Positions 9,733 through 26,917 of a stretch of 27,746 bases of DNA are shown in pieces (within the stretch, counting starts at the first letter, position 1; each line of letters starts with the position of its first letter). The stretch is taken from assembly GCA_045614245.1 (NCBI GenBank), contig JAZLCM010000016.1, positions 1 through 27,746 on the forward strand, read 5' to 3'. This DNA comes from Candidatus Enterousia sp. GTDB taxonomy: Bacteria; Pseudomonadota; Alphaproteobacteria; Rs-D84. Below the pieces are notes generated by a model. The model searched no databases, was not told the origin of the DNA, and saw nothing but the letters and a program-made list of their open reading frames with translations. Made by a program: the position numbers and the translations under genes.

Positions 9733-11721
9733 ATGCGACATACTTTATTAAATATATTTGGAATCGTTGCCGTTGTATTTGCGGTGATATTTGCAATACA
9801 AATCAAAGGGGGTAAAAAAATGGGTATCGGTATAAATATAGATAATTTAGATTTTTCGTTAAATCCGGCAAATGATTTTTTTGATTTTGCTACATCGCGC
9901 TGGCGTGCGGCAAATCCGATTCCTGATGATTACGTTCGCTATGGCGCATTTGAAGTCTTACAAGAAACCAATCTGAATCGTGTGCGCGAAATTGCCGAAA
10001 ATGATAACGGAAAAATTGGTATGCTTTATAAAATTGCAATGAATTCTAACCGGTTGAACGCCGATAAAACCGCACCGGTCAAAAAATACTTTAATGAAAT
10101 TGATGATATAAAATCAAAGTCCGATTTACCCGAATACCTTGGTAAAAGGCATGCGTATTTTTCAACATTTTGGGGTGACGCGGTCGCCATTGACGAAGGC
10201 GACAGCGAACATTTTATTTATAGTTTACACCAATCGGGGATTGGTTTGCCACGCGATTACTATTTTGACGACGACGCACGCACGCGCGAAATCCGCAAAA
10301 AGTATATCGATTTTATTGCAAAGCAATTGAAAAACTTTGGTATCAATGCGGACGCGAAAAAAATCTATGCATTGGAAGAACGCATGGCAAAGTCTTTCTT
10401 TACCAAAGAAAAACTGCGCGACCCACACGCAAACTATCATAAAATTTCCCGTGCAGATTTCGTTCGCGAATATGATGGGTTCGATTGGAAAACATATTTT
10501 GATTTTCGTGGTGCAAATGCCGCAGAATTTATTGATGTCGGGCAACCGGACGCCATCAAAGAATCAATAAAAATCATAAACGATACCGACATCGATTTAA
10601 TCAAAGCATATTTAAAATATCATGTTATTTTGGCGGCTGATTCGCTTTTGGATGATGACACATATGCGATATCTTTTGACTTCTTTAATCGCGAAATGTC
10701 GGGACAACGCGAACAAAAACCTCGTTGGAAGCGCGCAATCGGAATGCTTGATGGTGCAATCGGTGAAGAAATCGGTCGGCTTTATGTTGCGAAATATTTT
10801 CCGGCGGCGGCGAAACTGCGCATGCAAGAATTGGTTGAAAATCTGCGTCGGGCATATGCCGCCCGCATTCAAAAACTTGATTGGATGTCGGATGCGACGC
10901 GCGAAAATGCGTTGCGTAAATTAAATTCTTTTCATGCAAAGATTGGATATCCGGACAAATGGCGCGATTATTCAAAACTTACATTGGACGAAAATGAAAG
11001 TCTGTTTGAAAATATGATGCGGGTTGCAAAATTCGAGGATGATTTTTGGATGGCGAAAATCGGTAAAGAAAAAGATCCGACCATTTGGTACATGAATGCG
11101 CATACAATCAACGCATACTATGACCCGACCACGAACGAGATTTGTTTTCCCGCGGGAATTTTGCAACCCCCGTTCTTTGATATGAATGCGGATGATGCAT
11201 TTAACTATGGCGCGATTGGTGCGATAATTGGGCACGAAATGACACATGGATTTGATGATTCCGGTCGCCACTTTGATGAAAACGGAAATATGCGCGATTG
11301 GTGGACAGACGCGGATTCAAACGCATTTACCGAACGCGCAAATGTTATGCGAAAATATTTTGATAACATCTTGGTTGCGCCCGACACACATGCAAATGGT
11401 GAATTTACACTTGGTGAAAATTTGGCGGACTATGGCGGTGTGACAATTGCATATACAGCATACAAGAATTTTGGCAAACCGTCCGAAACCGTTGAAAACC
11501 TGACTCCGGATATGCGATTCTTTATCGCGTACGCGGGTGCATGGGCGGGCAACATACGTGATGAACAGGTTTTGGTACAAACAAAAACGAACGAGCATTC
11601 ATTGAATCGTTGGCGCGTGAACGGAATTTTGCCGCACATTGATGCATGGTACGAAGTGTTCGATGTTAAACCGGCAAACAAAATGTATCTTAGCCCTGAA
11701 AAACGCACGCGCTTGTGGTAA
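9733..11721 (+). CDS. M13 family zinc metalloendopeptidase (PepO/neprilysin-like)
   Basis: DDFF-like ANDFFDF, INAYYDP, PAGILQPPFF, NYGAIGAIIGHEMTHGFDD (HExxH), GENLADYGG, RVNG. Alternative in-frame start at 9820. Confidence 0.95.
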   Translation: MRHTLLNIFGIVAVVFAVIFAIQIKGGKKMGIGINIDNLDFSLNPANDFFDFATSRWRAANPIPDDYVRYGAFEVLQETNLNRVREIAENDNGKIGMLYKIAMNSNRLNADKTAPVKKYFNEIDDIKSKSDLPEYLGKRHAYFSTFWGDAVAIDEGDSEHFIYSLHQSGIGLPRDYYFDDDARTREIRKKYIDFIAKQLKNFGINADAKKIYALEERMAKSFFTKEKLRDPHANYHKISRADFVREYDGFDWKTYFDFRGANAAEFIDVGQPDAIKESIKIINDTDIDLIKAYLKYHVILAADSLLDDDTYAISFDFFNREMSGQREQKPRWKRAIGMLDGAIGEEIGRLYVAKYFPAAAKLRMQELVENLRRAYAARIQKLDWMSDATRENALRKLNSFHAKIGYPDKWRDYSKLTLDENESLFENMMRVAKFEDDFWMAKIGKEKDPTIWYMNAHTINAYYDPTTNEICFPAGILQPPFFDMNADDAFNYGAIGAIIGHEMTHGFDDSGRHFDENGNMRDWWTDADSNAFTERANVMRKYFDNILVAPDTHANGEFTLGENLADYGGVTIAYTAYKNFGKPSETVENLTPDMRFFIAYAGAWAGNIRDEQVLVQTKTNEHSLNRWRVNGILPHIDAWYEVFDVKPANKMYLSPEKRTRLW

Positions 11722-11726
11722 AATTT

Positions 11727-12056
11727 TTAGTGATGCAAAAACAAATGTGTGACAATTCCCGCAACTGTAAGAATTGTTATACAGGTTAAAATTATCATCT
11801 GTACGCGGTGATGGTGCGTTTCGTCGCAGTGTTTGCAATCGCAGTTACGATTGTTGAAATATGTAATCCAAGACAGCAAAAGCATCAAAACCGAAAAAAC
11901 AAACAGCCACTTTTCCGCACTTTCCGGGATAAATTCGTGGTCGGCAACACCGGGTGCAACAAGACCGACCAAGCCCAACACCACCGGCAGCACACAGCAA
12001 AACAGGTGTGGCAAAATTCCCGCAATTATTCCATATTTCAACGCACGATTTTTCAT
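11727..12056 (-). CDS. MerT-like three-helix heavy-metal transport membrane protein
   Basis: Three hydrophobic segments; Cys-Cys in TM1 (LFCCVLP); CDCKHC-HHH in the TM2-TM3 loop, the same Cys layout as MerT; GGATGA Shine-Dalgarno. Confidence 0.65.
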   Translation of the reverse strand: MKNRALKYGIIAGILPHLFCCVLPVVLGLVGLVAPGVADHEFIPESAEKWLFVFSVLMLLLSWITYFNNRNCDCKHCDETHHHRVQMIILTCITILTVAGIVTHLFLHH

Positions 12057-12072
12057 GTATCATCCATTATCT

Positions 12073-12148
12073 TGGTATCCCCAGCCGGAATCGAACCGAC
12101 ATCTAATTCTTAGGAGGAACTTGTTCTATCCAATTGAACTATGGGGAC
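12073..12148 (-). tRNA. tRNA-Arg(CCT), 76 nt, CCA encoded
   Basis: Folded by hand: acceptor GTCCCCA/TGGGGAT, D arm GTTC/GAAC, anticodon arm AGTTC-CTCCTAA-GAATT, T arm GTCGG-TTCGATT-CCGGC, 3' ACCA. Confidence 0.97.
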
Positions 12149-12157
12149 ACAGATTGT

Positions 12158-12207
12158 ATTTTAATCTTTGATTTTGATATTGCAAGTTATATTAAAACCT
12201 GTATAAT
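12158..12207. promoter_or_regulatory. Back-to-back divergent promoters (tRNA-Arg and fabH) sharing a palindromic -35
   Basis: TTGCAA at 12180-12185 is self-complementary; plus-strand TATAAT at 12202-12207 and minus-strand TAAAAT at 12163-12158 each lie 16 nt from it. Confidence 0.6.
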
Positions 12208-12235
12208 ACCCAGGCACCGTAATTGGAAGTTTTAA

Positions 12236-13174
12236 ATGGGGAACAAACTTATCGGATATGGATCTTATTTACCGTCGCGCGTCATGACGAACGCAGACTT
12301 TGAACGCGTAATGGATACGACGGACGCGTGGATTGTTGAACGCACCGGGATTCGTGCGCGGCACTTTGCGGCGGAAAATGAAACTGTCGTTGACATGGCA
12401 ACAAATGCGGCGCGCGCGGCGTTGGAAAATGCAAAGATTGGAATTGATGATATCGATATGATAATCGTCGCGACAACAACACCGGAATTGGATTTCCCGT
12501 CTGTTGCGGTGACGGTTGCGGGTCGATTGGGCGCAACGAACAATATGCCGGCTTTTGATGTTCGTGGTGCATGTACGGGGTACATATATGCCCTGCACTG
12601 CGCACGCGGATTTTTCACCGCCGGCATGCATGAAAGAATTATGATAATCGGTGCGGAAAAGATGTCGCGCTTTGTTGACATGAATGACCGTTCTACGGCG
12701 GTTCTGTTCGGCGACGGTGCGGGCGCATTGATATTCGAACGGTCAACTTCAAGTTATTCTGGGATTATCGATACGGTTGTTATGTCGGACGGTAAAAAGT
12801 TCAACATGTTGCATGGGTCGCCCGACCACCGGATTATTATGAACGGACCGGAAACATATAAAATGGCGGTGTCATTAATGCCGGATGCGGCGCGGTATAT
12901 TATGGATCACGCGGGAATTACCCAAGATGACATCGATTGGATTGTTCCGCACCAGGCGAACATAAGGATTATTGAATCCTGTGCGGCGCGGTTGGGTTTC
13001 CCGATTGAAAAGATTTTGATAACGGTGGACAAACACGCGAACACCAGTGGCGCATCTGGCGCGCTGGCGTTGGCATATGCGTTTGACAACGGCATCATAA
13101 AACATGGACAACTTGTCCTTTACCCCGCGTTTGGCAGTGGCCTTACCTGGGGCGCAACATTAATAAGGGTATAA
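12236..13174 (+). CDS. fabH: 3-oxoacyl-ACP synthase III
   Basis: WIVERTGIRARH, GACTGYIY (catalytic Cys), TAVLFGDGAGA, PHQANIRII (His), ANTSGAS (Asn), FGSGLTWG. Confidence 0.96.
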   Translation: MGNKLIGYGSYLPSRVMTNADFERVMDTTDAWIVERTGIRARHFAAENETVVDMATNAARAALENAKIGIDDIDMIIVATTTPELDFPSVAVTVAGRLGATNNMPAFDVRGACTGYIYALHCARGFFTAGMHERIMIIGAEKMSRFVDMNDRSTAVLFGDGAGALIFERSTSSYSGIIDTVVMSDGKKFNMLHGSPDHRIIMNGPETYKMAVSLMPDAARYIMDHAGITQDDIDWIVPHQANIRIIESCAARLGFPIEKILITVDKHANTSGASGALALAYAFDNGIIKHGQLVLYPAFGSGLTWGATLIRV

Positions 13175-13191
13175 CATAGGGGGCATAAAAA

Positions 13192-13482
13192 ATGGCAACG
13201 ATGACAAGAAATGATTTAGCAATGAAATTGCGCGATAAATTTGGATTTACCGCGGCACAGTCGGGAAAACTGGTCGATTTGATATTCGATGAAATATGTG
13301 AATCGCTGGTTAACGGTGAAGAGGTTAAATTCGCCGGGTTCGGCACATTCAAGATATTGGATAAATCTGCGCGTGTTGGTCGCAACCCAAAGACCGGCGA
13401 AATGGCAATTATAACGGCGCGTCGTGTTGTGACATTCCACCCCAGCAATGAATTCCGCGACCGCGTATCAAACGGAAAGTGA
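13192..13482 (+). CDS. ihfA: Integration host factor subunit alpha (HU/IHF family)
   Basis: VKFAGFGTF, GRNPKTGE, RRVVTFHPS; lies after fabH as ihfA does in alphaproteobacteria; GGGGG Shine-Dalgarno. Confidence 0.85.
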   Translation: MATMTRNDLAMKLRDKFGFTAAQSGKLVDLIFDEICESLVNGEEVKFAGFGTFKILDKSARVGRNPKTGEMAIITARRVVTFHPSNEFRDRVSNGK

Positions 13483-13584
13483 TGACAATTTTTTGTCATG
13501 GCTGTCCTGAAACAAGTTCAGGATGACAATAAACAAGTTTAGAATGACAAAACAACCCTATTCCGGGTCAAGCCCGGAATGACA
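13482..13584. repeat. Cluster of REP-like palindromic elements tagged with ATGACA (TGTCAT on the minus strand)
   Basis: ATGACAA-TTTT-TTGTCAT (13482-13499); TCCTGAA-ACAAG-TTCAGGA-TGACA (13505-13528); half copy AAACAAGTTTAGAATGACA (13531-13549); ATTCCGGG-TCAAG-CCCGGAAT-GACA (13560-13584). Confidence 0.8.
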
Positions 13585-13603
13585 AAGAGAAAATACTACA
13601 AAC

Positions 13604-13630
13604 AAAACGGGCGCAACCGCGCCCGTTTTT
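13604..13630. terminator. Bidirectional intrinsic terminator
   Basis: Perfect 11 bp inverted repeat AAAACGGGCGC-AACC-GCGCCCGTTTT between convergent ihfA and the giant-protein operon. Confidence 0.9.
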
Positions 13631-13637
13631 ATTGCGC

Positions 13638-13945
13638 CTACCGCACCAAGTTTGCACATCTATAATTTTGGATATTCGTTGACAAATAACCTACGATACA
13701 AGATTCGTCACCCGATATTCTTGAATGCATAACAATGTTGCTTGTTGCTGTAATAGGACCGATTGGTGTATGCACTCATGCACCATTTTCGTACACAAAA
13801 CATAATCGTAAGCAACTAAAGTTTTATCACTGGAGCATGATAATTTATATGCACAAGAAATTTGTCCAGATACAAGTGGAAATTTAGCAACGGTAACACC
13901 GTTTAATCCACTAATATCCGGACAAAAGAAACCTTCATTTGTTAC
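13638..13945 (-). pseudogene. Degraded C-terminal repeat of the upstream Cys-rich protein (two frameshifts plus a TGA)
   Basis: The +1 frame gives EGFFCPD...SCAYKLSC, matching the gene's FxCP...CxYxxxC repeats. The original frame resumes VYENGA*VHTP...SCIVGYLSTNIQNYRC and ends at TAG 13638-13640, next to the terminator. Confidence 0.7.
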
Positions 13946-16832
13946 CCTGCCCTGTGCCACTATTAGGAGTGCACACATATTTACCAAATTCTGTTGTCAA
14001 ATAGTACAGACTTTGGTAAGCACCGTATCCATCCGTGCAATTACTTGCTATACATCTAACTTTGCCTACATTACCAGACACAGGATCATTATTATACGAT
14101 AACGTTCCTGGAGAATAATCACCATTACAATAAATGTTATATTCACACAAAAGTCCCGTTTGTGTTGGTAACGCAGGCGATACACTCGGATCTGCACCGT
14201 TAAAATTCGGGCATGTAAAACAACCCAATGAAGCAAACCTGGTGTTTAACTTTCCTTTAACACAGGCCATATTATCACTGCCATCACCATTACAACTAAT
14301 GTCCATAGTATTATTAATATAACTTGTTAAATCTGCGTCAGATGGTATAGAACTAAATCTATATGGATAGGTTCCATTTGGATCGTATACCGCCCCATTG
14401 TTGCAAGCAACAGTATACTTACACTTTTTAGCGGGATAATCGGAATCGTCGACTTTTTCGCGACTCACAATTTGCATACCTGATGGTAAAGTCAAATCAG
14501 ATGGACACACAAAAGCATAATTTGCGCAGTACTGTGTAGCATTGTTACCACATTTACCTGGCTCGCTCTCGCATGATTCAATACATAACTCATAGTTAGA
14601 TCTACAATATCTGTGCCCTGTGGTTTCATTACGTACCAAAGTATATCCCTCATTGCATTGCAAACGTTTGCAATCCCCCCACAAAGTTCCTGTATTGTTA
14701 TTGTCATATTGTATGGTTTGATCACCTATAACGTCCACACACGTACCATTTGTCGCTTCACATAAATCACAAACAAAACCTTTAACATTGGCTACGACTT
14801 CTATGCCAAAACTACTCTGACCACATGCTAAGCTATGATTTGGGCTGAAGTATTTATTATTAAGCCGTAAATATCTCAGTTGATATCCATTTGTATGACT
14901 ATTGAAATTATCCGTACTTAGAAAATGATAAGTAGAACCATATGTACAACTATCGCCAAAATTATACGAAAACTCAACGACATCAGCATATTGATTAACA
15001 AATGAATAGTTAATATCTACACTGGTACCTGTACCAGAGGTGCAAACCGGCTGATATGATTGATACGTGTCTGTTGTTACACTGTTACTTCCACTGCAAG
15101 ACGTCGTATACTGCACATCACCACGTCCATATGACGTACCACTCTGTCCATTAATGAGTAACGAACAACTTGCACCTTCCCCTGGCGCACAATTCTTTGC
15201 CCATGCACCATAAAGTGTAATGTCATATTCAGTCATCGGGTCTGAATTCGGAACGCATACGCTATAAATCGTAGAATAAGGAGAGCCTATGACCATTTCC
15301 CTATTATTTGGGTTTCCAACCCCAAAACCATTTACAGGTGCACCGGCATTCGTATTTTTCGTAGCAAACCATTTTATATCACTATCATCCAAATAATATC
15401 CACGGAAAGTCCAACCAATCGCCTTTGGTTGCGGAATCCCCCATATCAAATCATTTGTCTGTGCAGGTGTATAATTACCATTTGGCACACACACCTGCTG
15501 ATTTTCTTGGCTGCCATCGTCATTGGTAACAACTTGGGTTATATAGGTACATCCAAGTGATTCGTTCAAACATATACTCATGCCATTAGTGCCCTCATAT
15601 TGCTTGTCACAAGGACATTGATAATAATAGTAATGAACAGTTGTTTGTTGTCCATCTACGTATTCTAATCTATTAAAAGAACGATCTTCACATCCAGAGC
15701 ATCTTGTGCAATCAGTTGTTGAAGGCAAATAATACATTACCTCTGGTGGTATTGCACCTTCGCTAGTAAACCAGCAACCATGTTCACGACAATATAACAC
15801 GTGATGTGTTGTTGTGTTTGGTCCACCAGAATGTAACCATTCTGGGGTAACACTGATGTTACCGTTACTATTTGTAGAAAAACTTACATTGCTTGGTGCA
15901 GTATACGTACCCATATATGGTTCATGATAAGTTTGCGAATACCTTGAATACCACAAATTGTTATGATAATAATGCGTACCGTCTATATAATCTGCATTAG
16001 CGGAATTTGAATCATAGTACATATAGTAATACATTTTATTTACAAAATCACTTGTAAGATTGAAACCTTGTATCTCCGCAGTGCCACTAGGATTATAATC
16101 ATATAATTTGATTGTTCCTGTTTTTATACATTTCTGCTCTTCCGCATTAACATAATCTGGATTAATTGTTGTACCATTTTTATCTACATAAACCGTGTTT
16201 TCATCAACGCATGTTCCTTTGGAATTCATGGTAGCGCGTGCATCGTTATCGCAAGTATATTTTGCAATATATTTTTGGGTTGTTGCGGTTCCCACGGTTA
16301 CGATTGGACTTGCCGTAGAATCGCTTGCACCTTCGGCATAAAATCCGACCAACTTTGCATTATCAGAACGCGTGACACCCGCCGACAATATCAAATCCCC
16401 GGGGTGCATTGCCATGGTGGATTGTGTGAAACTAACCGGCAACGATCCGCCCTTCATATCCAATGTTACGGTTACTAATTGTTCTGATGCCGGAATGACC
16501 GAACCGGTTAGTGGTGTTCCGCCTGAGGTGGCGCCTATAAGTGCGTTACGGATCTGTTCATCTGCATAAGCGGTTGTATTTGGTGTTCCATCGGCATTAA
16601 ATAATTTTATGGTGCGACTGCCAACGGTAACATTTAGACCCTGTGCCCCACTGGGCAAAGTGATACTATTTACTTTATTGGTCTGCGTACAACATTGACC
16701 GGTCCCAGGTTGACTGCGACACAGGCTAAGCCCCGCACATGTATCCGGAACAACATTCAACCAGTACGTGGTCGCGGTGGCGGCACCAGTTACAAAACAT
16801 CCACAAATCGAATAAATACAATACTTTTTCAT
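13935..16832 (-). CDS. Large secreted Cys/Tyr-rich repeat protein with InlB B-repeat-like segments, unknown function
   Basis: Long ORF (track gives start 16841; ATG 16832 has AGGATGA upstream); signal peptide MKKYCIYSICGCFVTGAATA; PQPKAIGWTFRGYY...ITLYGAW resembles the Listeria-Bacteroides repeat; C-terminal ~97 aa repeats. Confidence 0.85.
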   Translation of the reverse strand: MKKYCIYSICGCFVTGAATATTYWLNVVPDTCAGLSLCRSQPGTGQCCTQTNKVNSITLPSGAQGLNVTVGSRTIKLFNADGTPNTTAYADEQIRNALIGATSGGTPLTGSVIPASEQLVTVTLDMKGGSLPVSFTQSTMAMHPGDLILSAGVTRSDNAKLVGFYAEGASDSTASPIVTVGTATTQKYIAKYTCDNDARATMNSKGTCVDENTVYVDKNGTTINPDYVNAEEQKCIKTGTIKLYDYNPSGTAEIQGFNLTSDFVNKMYYYMYYDSNSANADYIDGTHYYHNNLWYSRYSQTYHEPYMGTYTAPSNVSFSTNSNGNISVTPEWLHSGGPNTTTHHVLYCREHGCWFTSEGAIPPEVMYYLPSTTDCTRCSGCEDRSFNRLEYVDGQQTTVHYYYYQCPCDKQYEGTNGMSICLNESLGCTYITQVVTNDDGSQENQQVCVPNGNYTPAQTNDLIWGIPQPKAIGWTFRGYYLDDSDIKWFATKNTNAGAPVNGFGVGNPNNREMVIGSPYSTIYSVCVPNSDPMTEYDITLYGAWAKNCAPGEGASCSLLINGQSGTSYGRGDVQYTTSCSGSNSVTTDTYQSYQPVCTSGTGTSVDINYSFVNQYADVVEFSYNFGDSCTYGSTYHFLSTDNFNSHTNGYQLRYLRLNNKYFSPNHSLACGQSSFGIEVVANVKGFVCDLCEATNGTCVDVIGDQTIQYDNNNTGTLWGDCKRLQCNEGYTLVRNETTGHRYCRSNYELCIESCESEPGKCGNNATQYCANYAFVCPSDLTLPSGMQIVSREKVDDSDYPAKKCKYTVACNNGAVYDPNGTYPYRFSSIPSDADLTSYINNTMDISCNGDGSDNMACVKGKLNTRFASLGCFTCPNFNGADPSVSPALPTQTGLLCEYNIYCNGDYSPGTLSYNNDPVSGNVGKVRCIASNCTDGYGAYQSLYYLTTEFGKYVCTPNSGTGQGNK

Positions 16833-16863
16833 TTTTATCATCCTGTTGTTTTAAAATTCGACA

Positions 16864-19800
16864 CTAATCTACATTGACCGGAATATATTGTGGTTGCACA
16901 CTGTTACTCCATTGTGCCATGCATGTTGTTGTTCCGGTTATTGTTATACTGTCATTCGGTTCATAGTTGTTGTTGGCACAGAGCCAACCGCTAAGTGTGT
17001 ATCCGTCGCGTGTGCACCAAGTAGAATCCAAGTTAAACGGCGTATTGGTTGACTTATCAAGGGGACTTGTAATACCGTTAAGTTCCCCAGCACCACAATT
17101 AACCGTTAATTTTACCGTTTGTGCGTCGCCGCTACCCGCGGACTGATATTGTGCCGTGCAGGTCAAAAATTCCCCGGGTTCCACAGAAAATGTAGTGGTA
17201 TTTGAATTTGATGTACCACCATAATTTTGACCCAAACTGGACACGCAAGACCATTGATACGGCAGATAACCCGTTGGCGCGGTGCAGTAGTGGTCCATTG
17301 GTTGTAGGTTAGATACGGTACGGTCATTGGTATTTACGACAAAGTGACGTGTAACACCAGCTATTGACGTACCTTCGCCGCATTCAAGTTGCAATTCACC
17401 CGGCAAGATGCATTGTGCGTAACAAGCCACCGAAGTATTGGGAATAAGATCAACCGAACCAGTGCCGTAATCACCCAAGGAATTTAAATTAACCACACCA
17501 TTTGGTGAACATGTCCATTCTTGGGCACCCCCATTGGCAAAAAAGACAGGAACAGTGACTGTGGAATCACCACACGAATAGGTTTCGGGTTTGGTTTGGT
17601 TGCATTGTTCTGTTTGACCATTAGCTATTGCAAATGTTACAGAACATTCATCTTCGTCGGAACTACAAACCGGAGTAAGGGTTTGGACAACATCTGGGTT
17701 TAATAGCAAATTATCAGTCGGCCCAATACCCGATGGAGATTTTTTGTTTGATGCTGTATTTGACCATCCTGTAATAGTTCCACTTGTGCAAGAACACAAA
17801 TTACCCGACAATGTCATTGAGGCCGCCGGGGTTTGAATGGTGTATATGTTTCCAGCGGCGCCAAGTGTTCCCGTACCGTTGGAAGCGTGAGCCAACGCGG
17901 CAAGCGCGCCTTGGTTCAAGGTTGCGGGATTGTCCGCGTCGTCCGAGTCGCATTTAAACTGAACGATTGACTGACTAAGAGCCGGTGTCTGGCAATCGCT
18001 CTCACTTGTAACACATTCGTGGGTATAATCACACCAATATGGGGTAGCGTCGGGACATGCCTCGTCCATGTAGAGCGGGAAACAGGTTTTGTTGGCGACT
18101 ATATCAGAAAGCGTATATGGCGCGGGTTGCCAACTACCTGTGTTAATATAATTGTTACCCCAGGTCATATTACCACCATTCACACAATACCACTTTTCGG
18201 TGTCAATGGTATTATTGTCTTTTCTGCATAAAGTTGTGGATAACGTATAGTTGCCGCCATTCGTCACGTTGGTTTGATATACACCGTTAGATAATTGCGT
18301 CCATGTTCCGCTTGCCTGATCGGAAGAATTAAACGCTCCATCGCGACAATTCACCGTAAGTGTGTGATTGTTTTCGGGTTCGTCTTCGGGCGGATTACAA
18401 GTTACATTACAATTAACATCGGCGTTAGGCATATAGAATGTACTTTGTGACATCGCTTGATTATTAACATAACATGCTATGTTTTTTACACTATACCCCG
18501 AAGGGATTTTACTATTGGCTATGGTACCTATGTTCACATTGGTATTGTATGCATATGAAAGTGTTTGAGGTGCCGAAACACCACAATCACTATAATTTAT
18601 AAACAAGTTGTGTGTACCATTATCGCCACCAACATTTCCGCCACCGGAACATGTCACATAGCAATCAACATCAGCCGCCGGCATGCTGAATTTGTAACTC
18701 TGCATACTTATTTCTGTGGTGCCTTGATAACATTGTATGTTATCTATTGAATAACCCTGGGGCAAATCCCCAGTGGCTATACTATACACATTTACAGTTT
18801 CATCCTGTGACGGGGTAGGGTTAAGAACGTGGTTACCTCGACCACAGCTTTGTTGGTTGTATTTCAATGTAAATGCGTACCCGTCGTCGTCGGTTCCACC
18901 ATCACCGGAACATTTACCACCTTCACAGTCATAATTTGCAAAACATGTTATCGATGAGTTAACAGTAACTTGTTCTCCCGCAGTATATGTTTCACTGCCG
19001 CATACATACTCAACAGCCTCATTACTATCAGAATCTTTACATAAACCGCCCGCTAAGGTAAAAATGAAACTATTATCACCACTTCCTATGGGCGATTTCC
19101 TGAAACTTCCGGAGTGTCCAGTACCAGAAACCCAAATATATTCCGTATGGGACGTGCTATAATTACCATTAAACGTATTTCCTGATCCACAATCTATAGT
19201 TACTGTCGGATAAGGGTTAGAACCATCATTGTCATAACAAACTGCTGTACAGGTTGTTGATTGTGTCAGTCCATAAGCGCTAATGTTATCCAATCTCCCT
19301 ATTCCTGTTTCTCCACCCAATTCATTTAATCCATCTTCTAATGGGTCGCTATTAACACAAGACCATGTCTGCAAATCAACACCTGTAGCAAATCTAAGGT
19401 TCGTTGATGTTGTCGAATTACAGGCAACAATAATCGGATTAGCCGTTCCACATCCAACACCAGGTTGGAATATCACTTTGCAATCATTGCCTGCGCCTTC
19501 CGAGCTATAACAAATCGCAGTACAAGTTGTAGATTGAGTTATTCCATAAGTACTAAGTGGTTCTAACATTCCAAGCCCAGCCCCATTACCCAATGAATTC
19601 AAAACTGTTTCTAAATTATCATTATTTGGACAGGACCACACTTGTACACTATCATTGTCGTCAGAAACGAACCCATGTATAGCCGTTCTTGATGTTTTAT
19701 CACATGGAATTATAAGCTGACTAGCGGAACCACATCCGTTACCTGGTGCAAGTGTCACTTGACAAGTATCCCCGCTACCAGGACAAGCACCGACAACACA

Positions 19801-22410
19801 AACACCATCGCACCATGTACCTCCATGCTCTTCACACTCATATTGCCCGCCACCTGTGCAGTAAGTGGTATATTCCGACAGGGACGAATAACAGCTTGAC
19901 CTTGATGCGCACCAATATCCGCCGTTTGAACCGCAATCTGACTTGCTGTCACAATACCTCAATGTAGTTGGGGTGCATTGAATTGTGGAACTTTTGATAG
20001 CCAAACAATCCGGTGTTGTATAGTTATACAGCAACCCTTGGACCCAGCAATTCATTTCCGTTGGTGTTGGTGTGTCGATTGAATATCCGTTCACCGACAT
20101 ACAGGTTACAACCTGGGCGCGACATGCGTTAACCGCAATATTTGCCTTGGTCGTGTTGGTCGTTGTTTCCAAACCTGCCTCCCATTCGTTTGGATCTTCT
20201 TCGGGATACCCATTTTGCGACAAACACGATGTAACATCCGCCACGCATGTTTCGGCGTATTCAGACAAAATCGCATCCTGTTTCGCCTTTATCTGGACCA
20301 AAACGCGCCCCAGGTATTGTTTGATAACATCGTTTTCTTCGTTATATGTCGCGGAAGTTCCCTTGCCGGTGTATGTATAGTCTTGGCATTTATTCAACAC
20401 CGATATGCACATACCATAGTTGCGACCTTCCTTGGCATCAACATAACCGATTTTGTTTTGCAAGTATTGTGACATATTTTCACTGGCGTTTTTCGCGGTA
20501 CCTTTTTTAACCGTTTTTTCGATATAGTTCACAAGGTTATCGCCATAGCCAGTGCCACTGCCCCATGCGTTGTTCTGGGCATAGGTGCTTGGATATTGTT
20601 CATACGTTGGACCATCGTCGTTACCAGTGTGTTCCGTACACGTTTCACCTGGGAAATCCCATGTGCGGTAAAGATTCACACGGCAAACATCACTGGTCAT
20701 AACACTGGCGACACGTTCACGCAATTCTGGGTCGATGGCATGACCGGGTTGACTGCCCACCACGATTTCGCCGTTCACGATATAGCGGCCCGTCGGGTCA
20801 AGGCAATTTTCATATTCCGAACCACAAACAAAATCATCCTGCATACATTCATCCAAGGCATTGATACAACCACGCATGTCGTATGTATTTTTCTGTTGCG
20901 CGACCATCAAACGCGCCTTTTGCAAAACGTTCTTTGCGTTACGGACCGTCGCCAGCATTTCGTCGTTCGAATCGTTCAAACTGCGTTCGTACATGATACA
21001 TTCGCGGTCAATTTCCAAATCGTACGCGTTGGTAATAAGCGATGCATCAACACCACGCGCCGTACAAGCCTTTATCACAGATGTTTTGCAACGCGCCGCC
21101 GCGGTTTTATATAACTGTTCCCCGCGTTGGTTGTTGACACTGTTCGTGTTTGATGTGCCGAACAAAGAACCCAAATCGAAACCGGTACTGTCGAAAGAAA
21201 ATTCTAAAAGACCGGACAAATCGAAACCAAAGTCAGATCCCGCATTGCTTGTTGCGCCACCGGATTTAACATCGATTATCATGTCCTTTATCTTGTCAAG
21301 ACTTGTTTGCAATTGACTTGTATCCTTGCCCGCCGATTGCATCGCCGCCTCGGCCGCGGTTTGCGTAAACAAACTTTCTACTTCACGCTTGGTAAGTCCA
21401 ATGTATTGAATCTTTTGCGCGACATCTTGCAATTCTTCGGTTGCGGATTTTAACGCTGCCTCGGCCTTGGCATAGTTTTTCAGATTTGCACTGCAACTGC
21501 ACCGACCCTGGTTATCATCCAAGACATTACAATAGTTATCCATGCACGATGCATATTGCGCCTTGCAATAATCGGTCATTTCCGCAAGGTCGTCCATATC
21601 CTCCATCGACATTGCGACCGATGTTTCAGTCAAAGTCGACATACGCGTTGTCGGTGTCCGAATAGATGCAGATTTATAAAGTTTGGTGCCCGTGCTGTCT
21701 ATACCAGTGACAACCTGTGCAGTTCCAACACTGTTTTTGTTCGCCGCACCAACATATTGCGCCCGCACCGATGGACGCGACGCATCAGTTGTTGCCGCAC
21801 GTGACACATTTGTTGTGGCCCGCGCACCAGTCGCACGACCCGCCGTTGTTGCCGTACGTGCAACCCCAGACTTAACCGATGCGGTTGTTGTTGCCGCAGT
21901 ACGCGACGCACCACCCGTTGCACGCGCCGCCGCCGCACGCGTCGCCGCGGTATTCGTTGTTGACCTTGTTGATGTAGTCGCGGTTGTTGTTGTACGCGGT
22001 GAAACATTTGTTGCCGCACGTGAATTTACCGCACGATTTGCCGCCGCACGCGAAGCGTTTGTGCCCGTCGTACCACGCGACGCGACCACGCGCGAAGAAT
22101 TTCCCGCCGCCGTTCCACGACCCGATGCACCGGCCAAAGATGACGCAGGCATTGCACGTGTCGATGTTGAACGATTTGCCACAGGCGTGCCACTTACCGG
22201 TTGACGCGAAATCTTAACCGGTGTTTTCGGTGCAACCGTTTCGGTTGTTTCCTCGACAACTTCTTCGTCCGGAATTATCAAAAATCCATTTTCATCGTAC
22301 ATCGCGTCGGTGTATTCCAGCGCGTTTTCATCGTCGATGAAGATTGGTGCAACCTCAGCAAATGCGGGCATTACCAGCAATCCACCAATAAATATAGCAA
22401 GTCGTTTCAT
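16864..22410 (-). CDS. Giant (1848 aa) secreted Cys-rich modular protein, unknown function
   Basis: AAGGAAGG Shine-Dalgarno; signal peptide ending AFA; Arg/Ala/Thr low-complexity region; helical Cx6C core; about 10 C-terminal repeat modules, the last (RDGYTLSGW...TTTCMAQW) resembling an InlB B-repeat. Confidence 0.9.
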   Translation of the reverse strand: MKRLAIFIGGLLVMPAFAEVAPIFIDDENALEYTDAMYDENGFLIIPDEEVVEETTETVAPKTPVKISRQPVSGTPVANRSTSTRAMPASSLAGASGRGTAAGNSSRVVASRGTTGTNASRAAANRAVNSRAATNVSPRTTTTATTSTRSTTNTAATRAAAARATGGASRTAATTTASVKSGVARTATTAGRATGARATTNVSRAATTDASRPSVRAQYVGAANKNSVGTAQVVTGIDSTGTKLYKSASIRTPTTRMSTLTETSVAMSMEDMDDLAEMTDYCKAQYASCMDNYCNVLDDNQGRCSCSANLKNYAKAEAALKSATEELQDVAQKIQYIGLTKREVESLFTQTAAEAAMQSAGKDTSQLQTSLDKIKDMIIDVKSGGATSNAGSDFGFDLSGLLEFSFDSTGFDLGSLFGTSNTNSVNNQRGEQLYKTAAARCKTSVIKACTARGVDASLITNAYDLEIDRECIMYERSLNDSNDEMLATVRNAKNVLQKARLMVAQQKNTYDMRGCINALDECMQDDFVCGSEYENCLDPTGRYIVNGEIVVGSQPGHAIDPELRERVASVMTSDVCRVNLYRTWDFPGETCTEHTGNDDGPTYEQYPSTYAQNNAWGSGTGYGDNLVNYIEKTVKKGTAKNASENMSQYLQNKIGYVDAKEGRNYGMCISVLNKCQDYTYTGKGTSATYNEENDVIKQYLGRVLVQIKAKQDAILSEYAETCVADVTSCLSQNGYPEEDPNEWEAGLETTTNTTKANIAVNACRAQVVTCMSVNGYSIDTPTPTEMNCWVQGLLYNYTTPDCLAIKSSTIQCTPTTLRYCDSKSDCGSNGGYWCASRSSCYSSLSEYTTYCTGGGQYECEEHGGTWCDGVCVVGACPGSGDTCQVTLAPGNGCGSASQLIIPCDKTSRTAIHGFVSDDNDSVQVWSCPNNDNLETVLNSLGNGAGLGMLEPLSTYGITQSTTCTAICYSSEGAGNDCKVIFQPGVGCGTANPIIVACNSTTSTNLRFATGVDLQTWSCVNSDPLEDGLNELGGETGIGRLDNISAYGLTQSTTCTAVCYDNDGSNPYPTVTIDCGSGNTFNGNYSTSHTEYIWVSGTGHSGSFRKSPIGSGDNSFIFTLAGGLCKDSDSNEAVEYVCGSETYTAGEQVTVNSSITCFANYDCEGGKCSGDGGTDDDGYAFTLKYNQQSCGRGNHVLNPTPSQDETVNVYSIATGDLPQGYSIDNIQCYQGTTEISMQSYKFSMPAADVDCYVTCSGGGNVGGDNGTHNLFINYSDCGVSAPQTLSYAYNTNVNIGTIANSKIPSGYSVKNIACYVNNQAMSQSTFYMPNADVNCNVTCNPPEDEPENNHTLTVNCRDGAFNSSDQASGTWTQLSNGVYQTNVTNGGNYTLSTTLCRKDNNTIDTEKWYCVNGGNMTWGNNYINTGSWQPAPYTLSDIVANKTCFPLYMDEACPDATPYWCDYTHECVTSESDCQTPALSQSIVQFKCDSDDADNPATLNQGALAALAHASNGTGTLGAAGNIYTIQTPAASMTLSGNLCSCTSGTITGWSNTASNKKSPSGIGPTDNLLLNPDVVQTLTPVCSSDEDECSVTFAIANGQTEQCNQTKPETYSCGDSTVTVPVFFANGGAQEWTCSPNGVVNLNSLGDYGTGSVDLIPNTSVACYAQCILPGELQLECGEGTSIAGVTRHFVVNTNDRTVSNLQPMDHYCTAPTGYLPYQWSCVSSLGQNYGGTSNSNTTTFSVEPGEFLTCTAQYQSAGSGDAQTVKLTVNCGAGELNGITSPLDKSTNTPFNLDSTWCTRDGYTLSGWLCANNNYEPNDSITITGTTTCMAQWSNSVQPQYIPVNVD

Positions 22411-22436
22411 GGTAAATTTTTCCTTCCTTTACGAAA

Positions 22437-22466
22437 AGTTTACCATTTTATTGAAAATTAACGCAA
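22437..22466 (-). promoter_or_regulatory. Putative sigma70 promoter of the giant-protein operon
   Basis: TTGCGT, 18 nt spacer, TAAACT with TGn extension. Confidence 0.55.
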
Positions 22467-22531
22467 GCGAAAAATGAATACTTTTTCTAAAAAAATTTAT
22501 TTTTGTGAATTGTATCCTTTGGCGTTTTGAC

Positions 22532-22560
22532 TTGCGAATAAAAAGGTGACTTGATATAAT
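22532..22560 (+). promoter_or_regulatory. Putative sigma70 promoter of the phospholipase D gene (leaderless)
   Basis: TTGCGA, 17 nt spacer, TATAAT with TGn extension; ATG begins 7 nt after the -10 hexamer. Confidence 0.65.
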
Positions 22561-22566
22561 CGCAAT

Positions 22567-24147
22567 ATGACCAAGAAAAAGTTTTTTTTGTCACGAATAA
22601 TGTTTCCTTTTTTGGGTTGCGCAATCCCGACCAGTATGAAAGACGAAAGACTTTCGAACTATGTTCCAAAAATAACCGATAAAGATTTTGAATACAATCC
22701 AATCGATACACCAATTGCAAAGGTTTATAAAAAAGAACTTACCGATGGCACAAACATAAGTGGCGCAACACTTATCGACGACGGACTTTCTGCGTTCATT
22801 ATTCGCGCCGCGTTCGCACGCATGGCAACCAAGACTATTGATTTACAGACATATATATACAGTAACGATTTTTCCGCACATGTTTTAATAAGTGAACTTA
22901 AAAATGCCGCCGACCGCGGGGTCAAGGTAAGAATTCTTATCGACGATTACGGAACAAATTCCGACATCGCGGATGTTATCGTTTTGAACCAGCATCCAAA
23001 TATCGAAGTCAAAATTTTTAATGCGGTGAAACATCGGTCGCGACTTTTGTATTATCCGCAAATACTTATGGATTTTAATCGGCTTAATTCGCGCATGCAT
23101 AATAAACTTTTTATTATTGATAATGTCGCACTGATTACCGGTGGTCGAAATATAGGCAGTAATTATTTCATGCCGGAAACCGCCGCGAACTTTTCCGACA
23201 CTGATGTTTTATTCATTGGCGAAATAACACGCGGCGCAACCAAAAGTTTCGATGATTATTGGAACTTTGAATTGTCTGTGCCGGCGTCGGTTATTCCAAA
23301 GGCTTGTTCCGCGCGCGCGATGCAAAAACTTAGTCGACATTTTAGACGCCAAGAACAAATCGGAACAAAGAATATAAAACGATACGACAAAATTATTTCA
23401 CTTGTTGTGCGCGAATATAAACACAAAAATTTTGATTTTTCGTGGGGTCGCGGACGATTCTTGGCGGATGCACCAAGCAAAGTGCAAATGCCAATGAACA
23501 AAAAAGAAACCTATCGCGGGCAAATTATGCGTATGCTTAATAAACTTTGGCGCGACACGAAAACATGCGCCTATGTTTCCGCCGCATATTTTGTTCCGGG
23601 ACGTGGTGGCATGCAAATGATGCAACGTGAAGAAAAATCCGGTGTTCATGTTACCATTGTAACAAATTCTTTGGCATCAACAAATGCACCGACCGTTTTT
23701 GCAAAATGGGAAAAGTATCGAAAAAAACTTATTCGCGATGGAATTGATGTTTACGAATTTATGTCTTCGGCGGAAAATCGGCGCGGTCGAAAACACGACC
23801 GTATGCGAAAGCAATCAAGTTTTTCCGTAATGCACAGTAAAACCATCGTATTCGATGATAAAATTTCATGGATAGGCAGTTTTAATCTTGACCCGCGCAG
23901 CACATATTATAACACCGAAAATGTCGCGATATTTGAAAGCGCAGAGTTTGCAACAAAACTGCGTAATATGATTATCGAAGACACTGAAACTTCGTGGCAT
24001 GTAACAATCGACGAAAACAAAACGACTTGGATGGGGTTACGTGGTGGTGATAATGTCGCGCGAGTGTATAATCACGACCCCGACACAACAATTTTTAGAC
24101 GCATTTTTAAAACTATTGCAAAAATTATTCCGGAAAAATATGTCTAA
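22567..24147 (+). CDS. Phospholipase D family protein, cardiolipin synthase ClsC/YmdC-like
   Basis: Two HKD motifs (MHNKLFIIDNVALITGGRNIG; MHSKTIVFDDKISWIGSFNLDPRS), IDLQTYIY, AADRGVKVRILIDD, VTIVTNSLASTN. Confidence 0.9.
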   Translation: MTKKKFFLSRIMFPFLGCAIPTSMKDERLSNYVPKITDKDFEYNPIDTPIAKVYKKELTDGTNISGATLIDDGLSAFIIRAAFARMATKTIDLQTYIYSNDFSAHVLISELKNAADRGVKVRILIDDYGTNSDIADVIVLNQHPNIEVKIFNAVKHRSRLLYYPQILMDFNRLNSRMHNKLFIIDNVALITGGRNIGSNYFMPETAANFSDTDVLFIGEITRGATKSFDDYWNFELSVPASVIPKACSARAMQKLSRHFRRQEQIGTKNIKRYDKIISLVVREYKHKNFDFSWGRGRFLADAPSKVQMPMNKKETYRGQIMRMLNKLWRDTKTCAYVSAAYFVPGRGGMQMMQREEKSGVHVTIVTNSLASTNAPTVFAKWEKYRKKLIRDGIDVYEFMSSAENRRGRKHDRMRKQSSFSVMHSKTIVFDDKISWIGSFNLDPRSTYYNTENVAIFESAEFATKLRNMIIEDTETSWHVTIDENKTTWMGLRGGDNVARVYNHDPDTTIFRRIFKTIAKIIPEKYV

Positions 24148-24200
24148 TAACAATCGATTGAAATTTTTTTAAAAATTTTTTCATTTTTTTTATTTTTTCA

Positions 24201-24231
24201 CTTGACCCACGATTCGTTTTTATTCTATCAT
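24201..24231 (+). promoter_or_regulatory. Putative sigma70 promoter of the 112 aa orphan gene
   Basis: CTTGACC -35, 18 nt spacer, TATCAT; implies a leader of about 170 nt. Confidence 0.55.
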
Positions 24232-24310
24232 CCCTGTATAGACATTGGGACCAGAGGAAAAACGTTCGGATTTTCGAAAAAAACGCGGATTTTCGGGCAC
24301 AACAACAAAC

Positions 24311-24357
24311 AACTTGTAAATTCATATCGAAAACTTGTAAATACATCGTGTAAATAC
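24311..24357 (+). repeat. Direct repeats in the 5' leader (possible regulator binding sites)
   Basis: AACTTGTAAAT at 24311 and 24332 (21 bp apart); third TGTAAAT at 24349. Confidence 0.55.
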
Positions 24358-24407
24358 AAATTCGGGCTGAGTTTCAAAACAAACACCCAGAAAGGAGGGA
24401 CACACAC

Positions 24408-24746
24408 ATGCAACAAAAGAATATCAAAGAAATCATGATTGCCCTGCACAAAGTATTAAGCACAACTGTGTGGGTAAACGCCGATAGACAGATTATATCG
24501 CTTAGTGATGAACTGCAGATCGGTCAAAACAATTCACCGCGTTCAATCGAAGATTTGCCACGTACATCCTTGGTCGGTGCATATGTGTCTTTGCAAATTC
24601 GAACCGATAATTTTGATGTCGCCGCCGAAACGCTTGAAACACGTGAATTGGCGTTGCGCGTCAAAGAAATGGTCTTTGCCGAAGCAAAACGCATCATGGA
24701 TGCAGACGAAGGCAAATCGGGTGAAACTATCGCGATGGCGGCATAA
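24408..24746 (+). CDS. Hypothetical protein, 112 aa
   Basis: Strong Shine-Dalgarno AGAAAGGAGG, own promoter and terminator; no family recognised. Confidence 0.8.
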   Translation: MQQKNIKEIMIALHKVLSTTVWVNADRQIISLSDELQIGQNNSPRSIEDLPRTSLVGAYVSLQIRTDNFDVAAETLETRELALRVKEMVFAEAKRIMDADEGKSGETIAMAA

Positions 24747-24753
24747 CACCCGC

Positions 24754-24776
24754 AAAAAAGTTTCCGGTTTCCGGAA
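24754..24776 (-). terminator. Probable intrinsic terminator for the 302 aa gene
   Basis: Minus strand: TTCCGG-AAA-CCGGAA followed by AC and TTTTTT. Confidence 0.5.
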
Positions 24777-24786
24777 GGAAGGAGAG

Positions 24787-24819
24787 CACGTCGGCGGGTA
24801 ACCGCCGATGTGTATTTTT
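24787..24819 (+). terminator. Intrinsic terminator for the 112 aa gene
   Basis: CACGTCGGCGG-GTAA-CCGCCGATGTG (11 bp, one G-U pair, GNRA loop) then TATTTTT. Confidence 0.8.
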
Positions 24820-25726
24820 AATATGTAAACACAGATTTTCTAAAAAGTGGCATATCCTTGACCTCCCTTGCACATGTAGACGCACAATTGTCCTTTAATG
24901 CCCCCCAAGTTCCACGCGTACTAAAAACCCATTTGCCCGGTTTGGGGTCGGTCATTTTACAGTAACACGCATAATTTTTGACATCATCCGATGCCGCATA
25001 CCCATTTTGTTGCCAATCTAGATATTCATTCGTCACTTTGGATTGTATTGTTTCATCGGGAATGGTGCCATTACCCGCATCATACGCCGGTATAGTTTTT
25101 GATATAAAAGACGTTCCACGCACCGTGGTATCATTTGAAAATTCAACAATCCATTCACCGGGGCTTAAATCACCACATTCGAATTTTATTTTGTCATTCG
25201 TTATGGTTTCTTCAACCGTGGGTAAATTATCCAAGGCAAGATGATAACACTTGCCTGTTCCGTTCATATCTGAATTCAGTTGCGAATATACCGATTTCTC
25301 CTTGACCACTGGGTTTGTTTGCACTTGGTCTTTTTTTGATGAAACGAACTTTGGCTGTTGGGTGGGATACAGTTTGTTTGATTGATTATCCATAGTTTTT
25401 TCTTGGATTTGATTATTTACAGAATCAAGTTCTTCTCCAATTGCTTTTAACTGATTTTTTCCATCCTTTATCTGGGTGGTTAATTGGTCGCTTTTTGATG
25501 CCTGGGCAATGTTCACACCAACGCCAACAACCGTCAAACCAATAGTTGATATACCAGCAATCATCCAACCTTGCTTTTTGCCTTCGCATTTTTCAAGCTC
25601 TGTAATCTTATTTTGTTTTTCTATTAAAAGTTGTTGAATTTGTGGTGTCATATCTATACTGTACACCGTTGCAGAATTCAATGCAAAACACACGCCGATT
25701 AAAACGCTATAGTAAAACTTTGACAC
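24818..25726 (-). CDS. Exported protein with coiled coils, a Gly-rich hydrophobic helix and a Cys-rich C-terminal domain, unknown function
   Basis: GTG start with GAAGGA Shine-Dalgarno and TGnTATAAT upstream; signal-like N-terminus; WMIAGISTIGLTVVGVGVNIAQA; C-terminal CYCKM...WVF...CASTCA...FR. Confidence 0.8.
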   Translation of the reverse strand: MSKFYYSVLIGVCFALNSATVYSIDMTPQIQQLLIEKQNKITELEKCEGKKQGWMIAGISTIGLTVVGVGVNIAQASKSDQLTTQIKDGKNQLKAIGEELDSVNNQIQEKTMDNQSNKLYPTQQPKFVSSKKDQVQTNPVVKEKSVYSQLNSDMNGTGKCYHLALDNLPTVEETITNDKIKFECGDLSPGEWIVEFSNDTTVRGTSFISKTIPAYDAGNGTIPDETIQSKVTNEYLDWQQNGYAASDDVKNYACYCKMTDPKPGKWVFSTRGTWGALKDNCASTCAREVKDMPLFRKSVFTY

Positions 25727-25785
25727 GCTTTTTTCCTTCGTGTGTTTATTATATCATAAAATATAGTAAGACATTAAAAACTTTT

Positions 25786-26853
25786 TTATTCAGTGGCTTG
25801 TAATTCTGAACGGATATGCGCAAGGTTTGCAACACGACCGCCAATTATGTCGTTCAAATCATTTTTAGTAAATTCCGCCGCATAATGTATCGCGTTTGCA
25901 AACGCCAAAGCGTCCGAATTTCCATGAGTCTTTACAACAAAACCATTTAGACCCAAAAAGGTCGCACCCGCATAAGAACGCGGATCAATTTTATGCTTTA
26001 ACCGTTTGAACACATGAACAAGGAAAAACGCGCCGATTATCGCAAGCCATGATTTTTTCATATTTTCAGATATAACACGCTTGATAAGTTTTGCGGTGCC
26101 TTCGACAGTTTTCAAAACTATATTGCCGGTGAAACCATCCGTCACAACAACCTGGACCCGACCAGCACTGATGTCAGTAGGTTCCACAAACCCAAGGTAT
26201 TCAAACGGCAACTCTGCACGATGCGCCGTCAGCAACTTATTTATGTGTTGCAATGTTTCGTTGCCCTTGGTTTCTTCTTCACCGATATTTAAAACCCCAA
26301 GTTTCGGGCGTGGCATTTTACCGATAACCTCGGCATAAACACTGCCCAGAATCGAAAAATCAAACAAGTTTTCCGCATCACATTGAACATTTGCGCCCAA
26401 ATCTAAAACCACCACACGTGAATCACCCGCACCCGACGGCAACATTGTAGTTATCGCCGGTCGCGAAATGCCGTCAATCGTTTTCAGCGCAAGTTTCGAC
26501 AACGACATTAAAACCCCGGTATTCCCGGAACTGACCACCGCGGCACTGTTCCCTTCACGTACATCCTTTATCGCCATGTACATCGAAGTATTTTGCGCGT
26601 GACGAATTACATCACGGACCTTATCTGTGCCTTGGATTACATCCGGCGCGTTAATGACCGTACAGTTGCGTGCAACACGCGGATAGCGCGCCAATAATTT
26701 GCGCAGAACCTTTTCATCGCCAAAAATACGGAAAAAAGTGTGCGATTCACCGTGCTGGTACAAAAACTGGTTTATACCGCCAAGAACCGCCGCGGGACCA
26801 CGGTCGCCGCCCATCGCATCAATCGCAATAATTTTCTTTGTATCTTCGGCCAT
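25786..26853 (-). CDS. plsX: Phosphate acyltransferase PlsX
   Basis: IAIDAMGGD, SSGNTG, GISRPAI, LDLGANV, LNIGEEETKG, VVVTDGFTGNIVLKTVEG, GATFLGLNGFVVKTHGNS. Confidence 0.97.
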   Translation of the reverse strand: MAEDTKKIIAIDAMGGDRGPAAVLGGINQFLYQHGESHTFFRIFGDEKVLRKLLARYPRVARNCTVINAPDVIQGTDKVRDVIRHAQNTSMYMAIKDVREGNSAAVVSSGNTGVLMSLSKLALKTIDGISRPAITTMLPSGAGDSRVVVLDLGANVQCDAENLFDFSILGSVYAEVIGKMPRPKLGVLNIGEEETKGNETLQHINKLLTAHRAELPFEYLGFVEPTDISAGRVQVVVTDGFTGNIVLKTVEGTAKLIKRVISENMKKSWLAIIGAFFLVHVFKRLKHKIDPRSYAGATFLGLNGFVVKTHGNSDALAFANAIHYAAEFTKNDLNDIIGGRVANLAHIRSELQATE

Positions 26854-26860
26854 TGCGTAT

Positions 26861-26909
26861 TAAAAATGCAGACAGGCACGAAAATGCGCCCAATCTGCAC
26901 ATATTTTTA
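26861..26909 (-). terminator. Long imperfect hairpin between rpmF and plsX (partial terminator or attenuator candidate)
   Basis: Minus strand: TAAAAA..TGCAGA..GGGCGC-ATTTTC-GTGCCT..TCTGCA-TTTTTA; ends 7 nt before the plsX ATG. Confidence 0.45.
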
Positions 26910-26917
26910 TCTTGTTA

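Follow-up and report, generated by a model that had tools for sequence, protein, structure and literature searches.

Fixed inversions and gene-order shuffling are known in small, host-associated bacterial genomes. Segments found in both orientations are also described for switches such as fimS/FimBE, Hin-hix, the Bacteroides invertons and the shufflons, and inversion can further proceed by homologous recombination between dispersed inverted repeats. The genes considered here belong to the proteobacterial rpmF-plsX-fabH(-ihfA) cluster. In this study, a 27,746-nt stretch of DNA from Candidatus Enterousia sp. (GenBank assembly GCA_045614245.1, contig JAZLCM010000016.1; hereafter the window) was analysed with a focus on a 1.75-kb cassette that carries fabH and ihfA. 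The window is the entire contig C16 of a fragmented 857-kb metagenome-assembled genome (MAG) of 122 contigs. Candidatus Enterousia comprises gut and rumen bacteria of the uncultured order Rs-D84 (Alphaproteobacteria) with genomes of less than 1 Mb (PMC12306168).

Compared with the proteobacterial cluster, the window retains all four genes intact and both pairs adjacent, with fabH and ihfA also co-oriented. However, plsX (−) and fabH (+) are convergent and 12.6 kb apart, and the four-gene operon is neither contiguous nor co-oriented. The place behind plsX is occupied by orf302, and fabH, served by a promoter of its own, lies in linkage with a transfer RNA (tRNA) gene, tRNA-Arg(CCU), and a MerT-like gene (orf109). 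This geometry (fabH-ihfA, +, 12236-13482; rpmF-plsX, −, 25786-27067) had been described correctly in an earlier note on this DNA, which proposed that inversion of a 13.5-kb segment would rebuild the operon and that the segment may be a fixed historical inversion, a reversible switch or a misassembly. We found that the cassette alone is reversed relative to the nearest colinear relatives, and the layout is very likely a fixed product of ordinary evolutionary reshuffling that contains no functional invertible element.

The locus resembles the shuffling of small host-associated genomes in that a short block was flipped between species with no dedicated machinery nearby, and in that neighbouring self-contained modules are permuted in nearly every Enterousia species. 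It differs in that the zone lies away from the origin and terminus, is not flanked by insertion sequence elements or ribosomal RNA repeats, and has had the same cassette flipped repeatedly. With the switches named above it shares a segment present in both orientations among relatives, but flanking inverted repeats and an adjacent recombinase are lacking, neither a promoter nor a coding sequence changes partner, and only the orientation of the window was seen in the sample contigs checked. Palindromic terminators stand at both cassette ends in the clade of L014, L053, L071, L154 and L155, as in recombination between dispersed inverted repeats. Unlike repeat-mediated inversions, the window has a palindromic terminator on one side only, and the mechanism is not demonstrable there.

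Orientation of the fabH cassette among relatives

Among relatives in which plsX and fabH share a strand, the nearest are G080, G081, G075 and G050 (85-88% identity in plsX). They have the order plsX, (orf302 in G075), orf112, the PLD-family gene (PLD), orf1848, an orf968-like gene, orf109, tRNA, fabH, ihfA, the M13 peptidase gene (M13) and the radical SAM gene (rSAM). This is the gene order of the window except for the orientation of the cassette, and plsX and fabH are already about 8.5 kb apart in these relatives. In blastn comparisons, positions 13472-11725 of the window aligned in inverted orientation with 14530-12765 of L150 (79.6% over 1770 nt), and both flanks were colinear. Against G080, the window was colinear over rpoC-plsX, orf112-PLD-orf1848 and M13-rSAM-Pom and reversed only at 11725-13472. 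The same interval was the only one reversed against L150 and L149, and this state is repeated in independent assemblies. The fixed inversion suggested by the earlier note was thereby borne out as an inversion fixed in the lineage, but the inverted segment is 11725-13472 and not 12227-25783, and the breakpoints differ.

The breakpoints were placed to within tens of bases. On the M13 side, the breakpoint lies within 18 nt between 11706 and 11725, where the stops of M13 and orf109 are now 5 nt apart; the other falls somewhere from the stop of ihfA to the 3′ end of orf968. On the plsX tree, the colinear loci L151 and L149/L150/L152 are basal to a starred group of eight rows that holds the window, and the scored members of this group are all flipped (4/4). 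The tree needs at least eight orientation changes among 29 scored rows, five of which are forced by starred branches. Pure cassette flips were also recognised by gene order in two further flanking contexts, namely, the L053 group versus L031 and L065 versus L155; in the latter pair, one breakpoint was checked at the nucleotide level.

From these data, a course of events can be proposed. The ancestor of the 15-species clade that includes the window would have had the order plsX, (orf302), orf112, PLD, orf1848, orf968, the cassette (orf109, tRNA, promoter, fabH, ihfA) and M13; plsX and fabH would have shared a strand at a distance of about 8.5 kb. By parsimony, the 1.75-kb cassette alone would then have flipped, once, in the ancestor of the eight-row subgroup, thereby giving the present convergent layout. 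The flip probably proceeded by illegitimate or short-homology recombination. The coordinates of all features are given in Table 1.

Table 1 Features of the window in order of position
Feature	Position	Strand	Basis or remark
zapA, parC (two open reading frames), class II aminoacyl-tRNA synthetase gene, acyltransferase, GNAT, SLT_2, Pom-like porin, radical SAM	upstream of 9733	mixed
M13 peptidase	9733-11721	+	Pfam Peptidase_M13_N/M13; colinear with relatives
Inverted segment: cassette of orf109, tRNA-Arg(CCU), promoter, fabH, ihfA	11725-13472		blastn and gene map
orf109, small Cys/His-rich membrane protein	11727-12056	−	weak NCBIfam MerTP match, E 5.7e-6, below cut-off
tRNA-Arg (anticodon CCT)	12073-12148	−	ARAGORN; Rfam 60.3 bits; divergent from fabH
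fabH promoter TTGCAA-16-TATAAT	12180-12207	+	promoter scan 10/12; alignment of fabH upstream regions
12-nt motif, left copy	12227-12238	+	fabH ribosome-binding region and ATG
fabH (KAS III)	12236-13174	+	Pfam ACP_syn_III and ACP_syn_III_C
ihfA (HU/IHF family)	13192-13482	+	Pfam Bac_DNA_binding
Hairpin cluster behind ihfA (four hairpins)	13483-13634		fold z-score −7.7; terminator scan
orf968, exported Cys-rich (5.1%) giant protein	13935-16841	−	signal-peptide-like N-terminus
orf1848, exported Cys-rich (4.5%) giant protein	16864-22410	−	signal-peptide-like N-terminus
PLD-family, cardiolipin-synthase-like gene	22567-24147	+	Pfam PLDc_2; NCBIfam cardiolipin synthase matches below cut-off; divergent from orf1848
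orf112, small protein conserved genus-wide	24408-24746	+	77-92% identity in relatives
Palindromic terminator, strong, 12-bp stem	24786-24813		between orf112 and orf302
orf302, exported/membrane protein	24818-25726	−
12-nt motif, right copy (11/12)	25772-25783	−	upstream part of orf302 promoter region, 2 nt after plsX stop
plsX	25786-26853	−	Pfam FA_synthesis, E 4e-95
rpmF (ribosomal protein L32)	26918-27067	−	49-aa open reading frame; identity from sequence and position
rpoC, 3′ end	to window end	−	identity from peptide only

The 12-nt motif, the switch and the assembly

The earlier note had drawn a single inversion between 12227 and 25783, with crossing over in a 12-nt motif that would have split plsX from fabH and swapped the fabH promoter with the orf302 leader. 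The geometry fits, and the 11/12 inverted match exists at both junctions, with AAGTTTTAAATG as the left copy and AAGTTTTTAATG as the right copy (Table 1). Flipping the intervening DNA would place fabH behind plsX, and the same holds for any two convergent genes. An inverted match of at least 11/12 to the fabH start context was obtained in about 1% of AT-matched 59-nt windows and in 3% of random AT-rich pairs, in a test defined only after the match had been seen. The 857-kb genome contains 26 copies of the motif with no more than one mismatch, and at least two matches occurred in 11 of 100 shuffles of the window, in line with the caution of the earlier note that an AT-rich match of this kind may arise by chance. 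The bases flanking the two copies do not extend the match, and the repeat search of the window returned nothing above background at 12.2 or 25.8 kb. Homologous exchange needs a match much longer than twelve bases.

At the fabH start, the motif is absent from about 30 relatives. It is also absent behind plsX in nine close relatives (L021-L028 and L045), which have unrelated sequence at that position, and the left copy carries a substitution (12233 T>G) in same-species strains of runs X1 and X3. The motif is thus kept at neither junction in any relative, and its proposed role as a conserved junction site did not hold. The match looks like a coincidence of two AT-rich signal regions, namely, the ribosome-binding site and ATG of fabH and the orf302 promoter behind the plsX stop.

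The region upstream of fabH also speaks against a crossover in the motif. A tRNA gene and a near-invariant promoter (TATTGCAAG ... TGTATAAT) upstream of fabH are common to about 25 Enterousia loci, and the tRNA-promoter-fabH block occurs with fabH in either orientation relative to plsX, colinear or convergent. Both TTGCAA-N16-TATAAT and the tRNA are kept upstream of fabH genus-wide, the tRNA in most relatives, and in relatives orf109 shows linkage with the tRNA and fabH; the final 30 nt ahead of the fabH ATG, motif included, vary freely. In its reading of the features between orf109 and fabH, the earlier note had missed both the tRNA gene and the conserved promoter. Because the linkage of tRNA, promoter and fabH is conserved genus-wide, the fabH ATG was not a crossover site, and at no time did the fabH promoter change places with orf302. 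The latter has its own TGnTATAAT box (25756-25748, −), which is conserved in L026 and L027, whereas the 12-mer is not. In addition, orf112, PLD, orf1848 and M13 of the nearest colinear relatives line up with the window, the 1.75-kb cassette being the only difference, and plsX followed directly by fabH was seen in no Enterousia genome searched, but only in the deep relative L099. We consider an inversion of the whole 13.5-kb segment through the motif very improbable.

Repeated changes of cassette orientation between species, together with recombinase genes elsewhere in the genome, would suit an active switch that couples the fatty-acid initiation genes to surface-protein genes by reversible site-specific inversion. 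However, inverted repeats around the 13.5-kb segment and around the cassette did not rise above background; the sole flanking pair at the cassette is a 17-nt, 82% inverted pair, the left arm of which is M13 coding sequence. No recombinase is encoded among the open reading frames of the window, as the earlier note had stated. The assemblies of the subgroup and the contigs from other samples all have one orientation and no strand-changing joints. The read-set check used contigs of four runs from other samples, the best of which holds 0.30 of the sampled words; it returned the orientation of the window only, with no strand-changing joint or loose end at either junction among the entries listed. 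Moreover, every gene keeps its own promoter either way, so that a flip would switch nothing obvious. With neither flanking repeats, a nearby recombinase nor a second orientation seen in the contigs, a reversible switch is highly unlikely.

The possibility that the contig was wrongly joined or inverted at AT-rich junctions is raised by the fragmented state of the MAG, of which the window is one whole contig. However, the same full gene order is found in G052/L153 (94%), and L021 (96%), L022 and L023 have matching partial maps; these assemblies were made by different groups from different hosts. Logan contigs of the unrelated sample X1 (approximately 96% identical) bridge both junctions as in the window and are uninterrupted over 24648-26960 (end of orf112, orf302, plsX and rpmF) and 12122-13530 (5′ part of the tRNA, promoter, fabH and ihfA). 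Because the four independent assemblies and the X1 contigs share the layout, misassembly is excluded, and an artefact at these junctions has next to no probability.

Several points weigh against a fixed product of ordinary reshuffling. Three tyrosine (PF00589) and two serine (PF00239) recombinase genes were found by a genome-wide search, all on other contigs (C118, C6, C115, C84 and C49). The source population may include a minority orientation, since contigs drop rare variants and come from other samples. A post hoc test put the chance of an 11/12 match at these positions low, at about 1-3%. On the orf968 side, the breakpoint is not placeable at the nucleotide level because orf968 is too divergent, and the direction of the flip rests on a single-gene tree, some backbone nodes of which are weakly supported.

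Operon history and module shuffling in the genus

In five genomes from three other families of the order Rs-D84, plsX is followed by fabH on one strand at a distance of 35-190 nt, and the order rpmF-plsX-fabH-ihfA, which the earlier note had called usual, holds for these families. A deep relative, L099 (plsX 72%), has kept plsX-fabH-ihfA, with a promoter-like box already in the spacer. Since these families and L099 keep plsX and fabH together, rpmF-plsX-fabH-ihfA can be taken as the ancestral state. The genus was sampled with 81 Enterousia genomes at 90% completeness or more; plsX is present in all (81/81) and fabH in 52. In 31 Enterousia relatives, plsX and fabH are on one contig and are colinear in 18, convergent in 12 and divergent in one. 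The gap between them is about 0.5 kb at the smallest and 2.5-20 kb in most, and the genes are adjacent in none of the 31. The synteny comparison that the earlier note had asked for thus showed the split to be shared across the genus sample (31/31), with the flipped piece being the 1.75-kb cassette only.

Gene maps were drawn for approximately 90 loci, thereby revealing the interval from plsX to M13 as a shuffling zone with M13 as its conserved far boundary. Three modules, namely, the block of orf109, tRNA-Arg, fabH and ihfA, the divergent pair of PLD and orf1848, and orf112, occur in nearly every order and orientation. The operon would have been broken early in Candidatus Enterousia, with self-contained gene modules coming between plsX and fabH, and fabH would have kept or gained its own promoter and become linked to tRNA-Arg(CCU) and the small MerT-like gene. 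All modules come with a promoter and hairpin terminators of their own; therefore, inversion should be nearly neutral for the modules, and flips would be cheap and often fixed.

The loci L064 and L066 (16250-17990 of each; 93.6% identical over 16 kb) differ in that the PLD gene alone is inverted. Their identity decreases to 84% within PLD and to 74% within orf1848, suggesting that these modules have been replaced by recombination between species. No inverted repeats were seen when the PLD breakpoints of this pair were inspected by eye.

At the boundary of the cassette on the orf968 side, a palindromic terminator lies behind ihfA (13604-13629) within the hairpin cluster. In the window, this palindrome is on the ihfA side only, and the 5-nt junction of M13 and orf109 holds no repeat. 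In the clade of L014, L053, L071, L154 and L155, both cassette ends carry a near-identical palindromic terminator of about 28 nt with the core ACCGGCAAATGCCGGT. One breakpoint between L155 and L065 abuts a terminator with this core, and each palindrome forms an inverted repeat by itself. In G031, a relative with a complete genome (958,618 bp), the exact core is moderately repeated, with nine copies, several of which are near the GC-skew minimum, and is not concentrated in the hotspot. Flipping of the cassette with the help of palindromes is a tentative proposal that we think rather unlikely. The cassette was flipped on its own in three flanking contexts, and about 30 species show at least 5-8 changes of orientation. 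These observations form the basis for a wider suggestion, in which the cassette would be a recurrently flipping unit of Enterousia, aided by end palindromes or short inverted repeats and maybe polymorphic within some species; we doubt it to much the same degree.

Behind ihfA (13483-13634), the sequence RATGACAA is repeated four times in 150 nt, and similar GTCATYCC/GGRATGAC hairpins adjoin the orf968-like gene in L149, L150 and L153. This REP-like motif (RATGACA) was considered as a cause and set aside, as it is not enriched genome-wide. Nearness to the origin or terminus was likewise rejected as the reason for the hotspot. The cumulative GC skew of G031 is lowest at about 170 kb and highest at about 680 kb, and plsX is at about 14 kb; the zone is approximately 160 kb from the minimum. 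The dnaA gene of G031 (347846-348298) is about 175 kb from the skew minimum and does not mark the origin deduced from skew.

A horizontally acquired island integrated at tRNA-Arg could be imagined for the plsX-fabH interval, given that a tRNA gene stands at one edge and giant exported proteins of no known family are encoded inside. The conservation of the interval argues otherwise: orf112, PLD and the N-terminus of orf1848 are conserved genus-wide, with 45-92% identity. In addition, the 3′ end of the tRNA faces away from the segment, no duplicated tRNA end was found, and no integrase is present in the window. An island is very unlikely.

The fabH gene of the window would belong to a working type II fatty-acid synthesis set, since the same genome also carries fabF-like, fabZ and fabD genes. 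In other members of the genus, fabH has been lost. Of 79 Enterousia genomes with a completeness of 90% or more, 29 yielded no fabH-family gene, and at least three independent losses are placed on the plsX tree among loci with ihfA visible. A clean deletion in L023 has removed fabH from the stretch that joins its promoter to the ribosome-binding site of ihfA (L023:20360-20560), and the fabH promoter runs directly into ihfA and drives it.

Neighbouring genes and implications

Pfam and NCBIfam scans assigned orf968, orf1848, orf302 and orf112 to no known family, and the sole match of the Rfam scan was the tRNA. The N-terminal part of orf1848 (approximately 800 aa) is conserved in the genus. Residues ~207-778 have eight paralogous matches (24-37%) on C96, C24, C32, C13, C10, C74 and C66, which suggests a multigene family whose members share a conserved domain that matches no known family. 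The paralogues were rejected as recombination substrates, as they are merely 24-37% identical and lie on other contigs. The giant Cys-rich genes appear to vary between strains, since orf968 and the repeat part of orf1848 (13530-19990) have almost no cover at 90% identity or more in same-species strains elsewhere and the X1 contig skips 369, 1219 and 1339 nt within this interval.

On the downstream side of plsX, orf302 had been called an orphan; this proved incorrect, as homologues lie behind plsX in L026, L027 and G075 (28% identity) and at the head of contig C15 of G012. The gene is absent from the closest relatives L021-L023 and G052. In L021-L023, the orf112 terminator hairpin sits directly behind plsX. 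In the window, no terminator was detected downstream of the plsX stop and ahead of orf302; therefore, read-through from plsX into orf302 is possible.

Two further observations were made outside the interval. The parC gene (DNA_topoisoIV family) is present as two open reading frames (505-1506 and 1522-2775) with a stop between them, and no other decay is visible. Upstream of rpmF, at 27135-27140, the X1 strain is approximately 970 letters longer than the window.

A 13.5-kb invertible segment that ties lipid synthesis to surface proteins would, if true, be a new regulatory switch, but the evidence does not support it. The locus instead offers a case history of a conserved operon dismantled in a genome-reduced gut symbiont, first into modules, then by flips and permutation of these modules, and then by the loss of fabH, which is missing from about a third of the sampled species. 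For the annotation of Enterousia MAGs, the result is of use in that such a layout is to be read neither as a misassembly nor as an island. It also bears on how much weight gene order can carry once operons are atomised.

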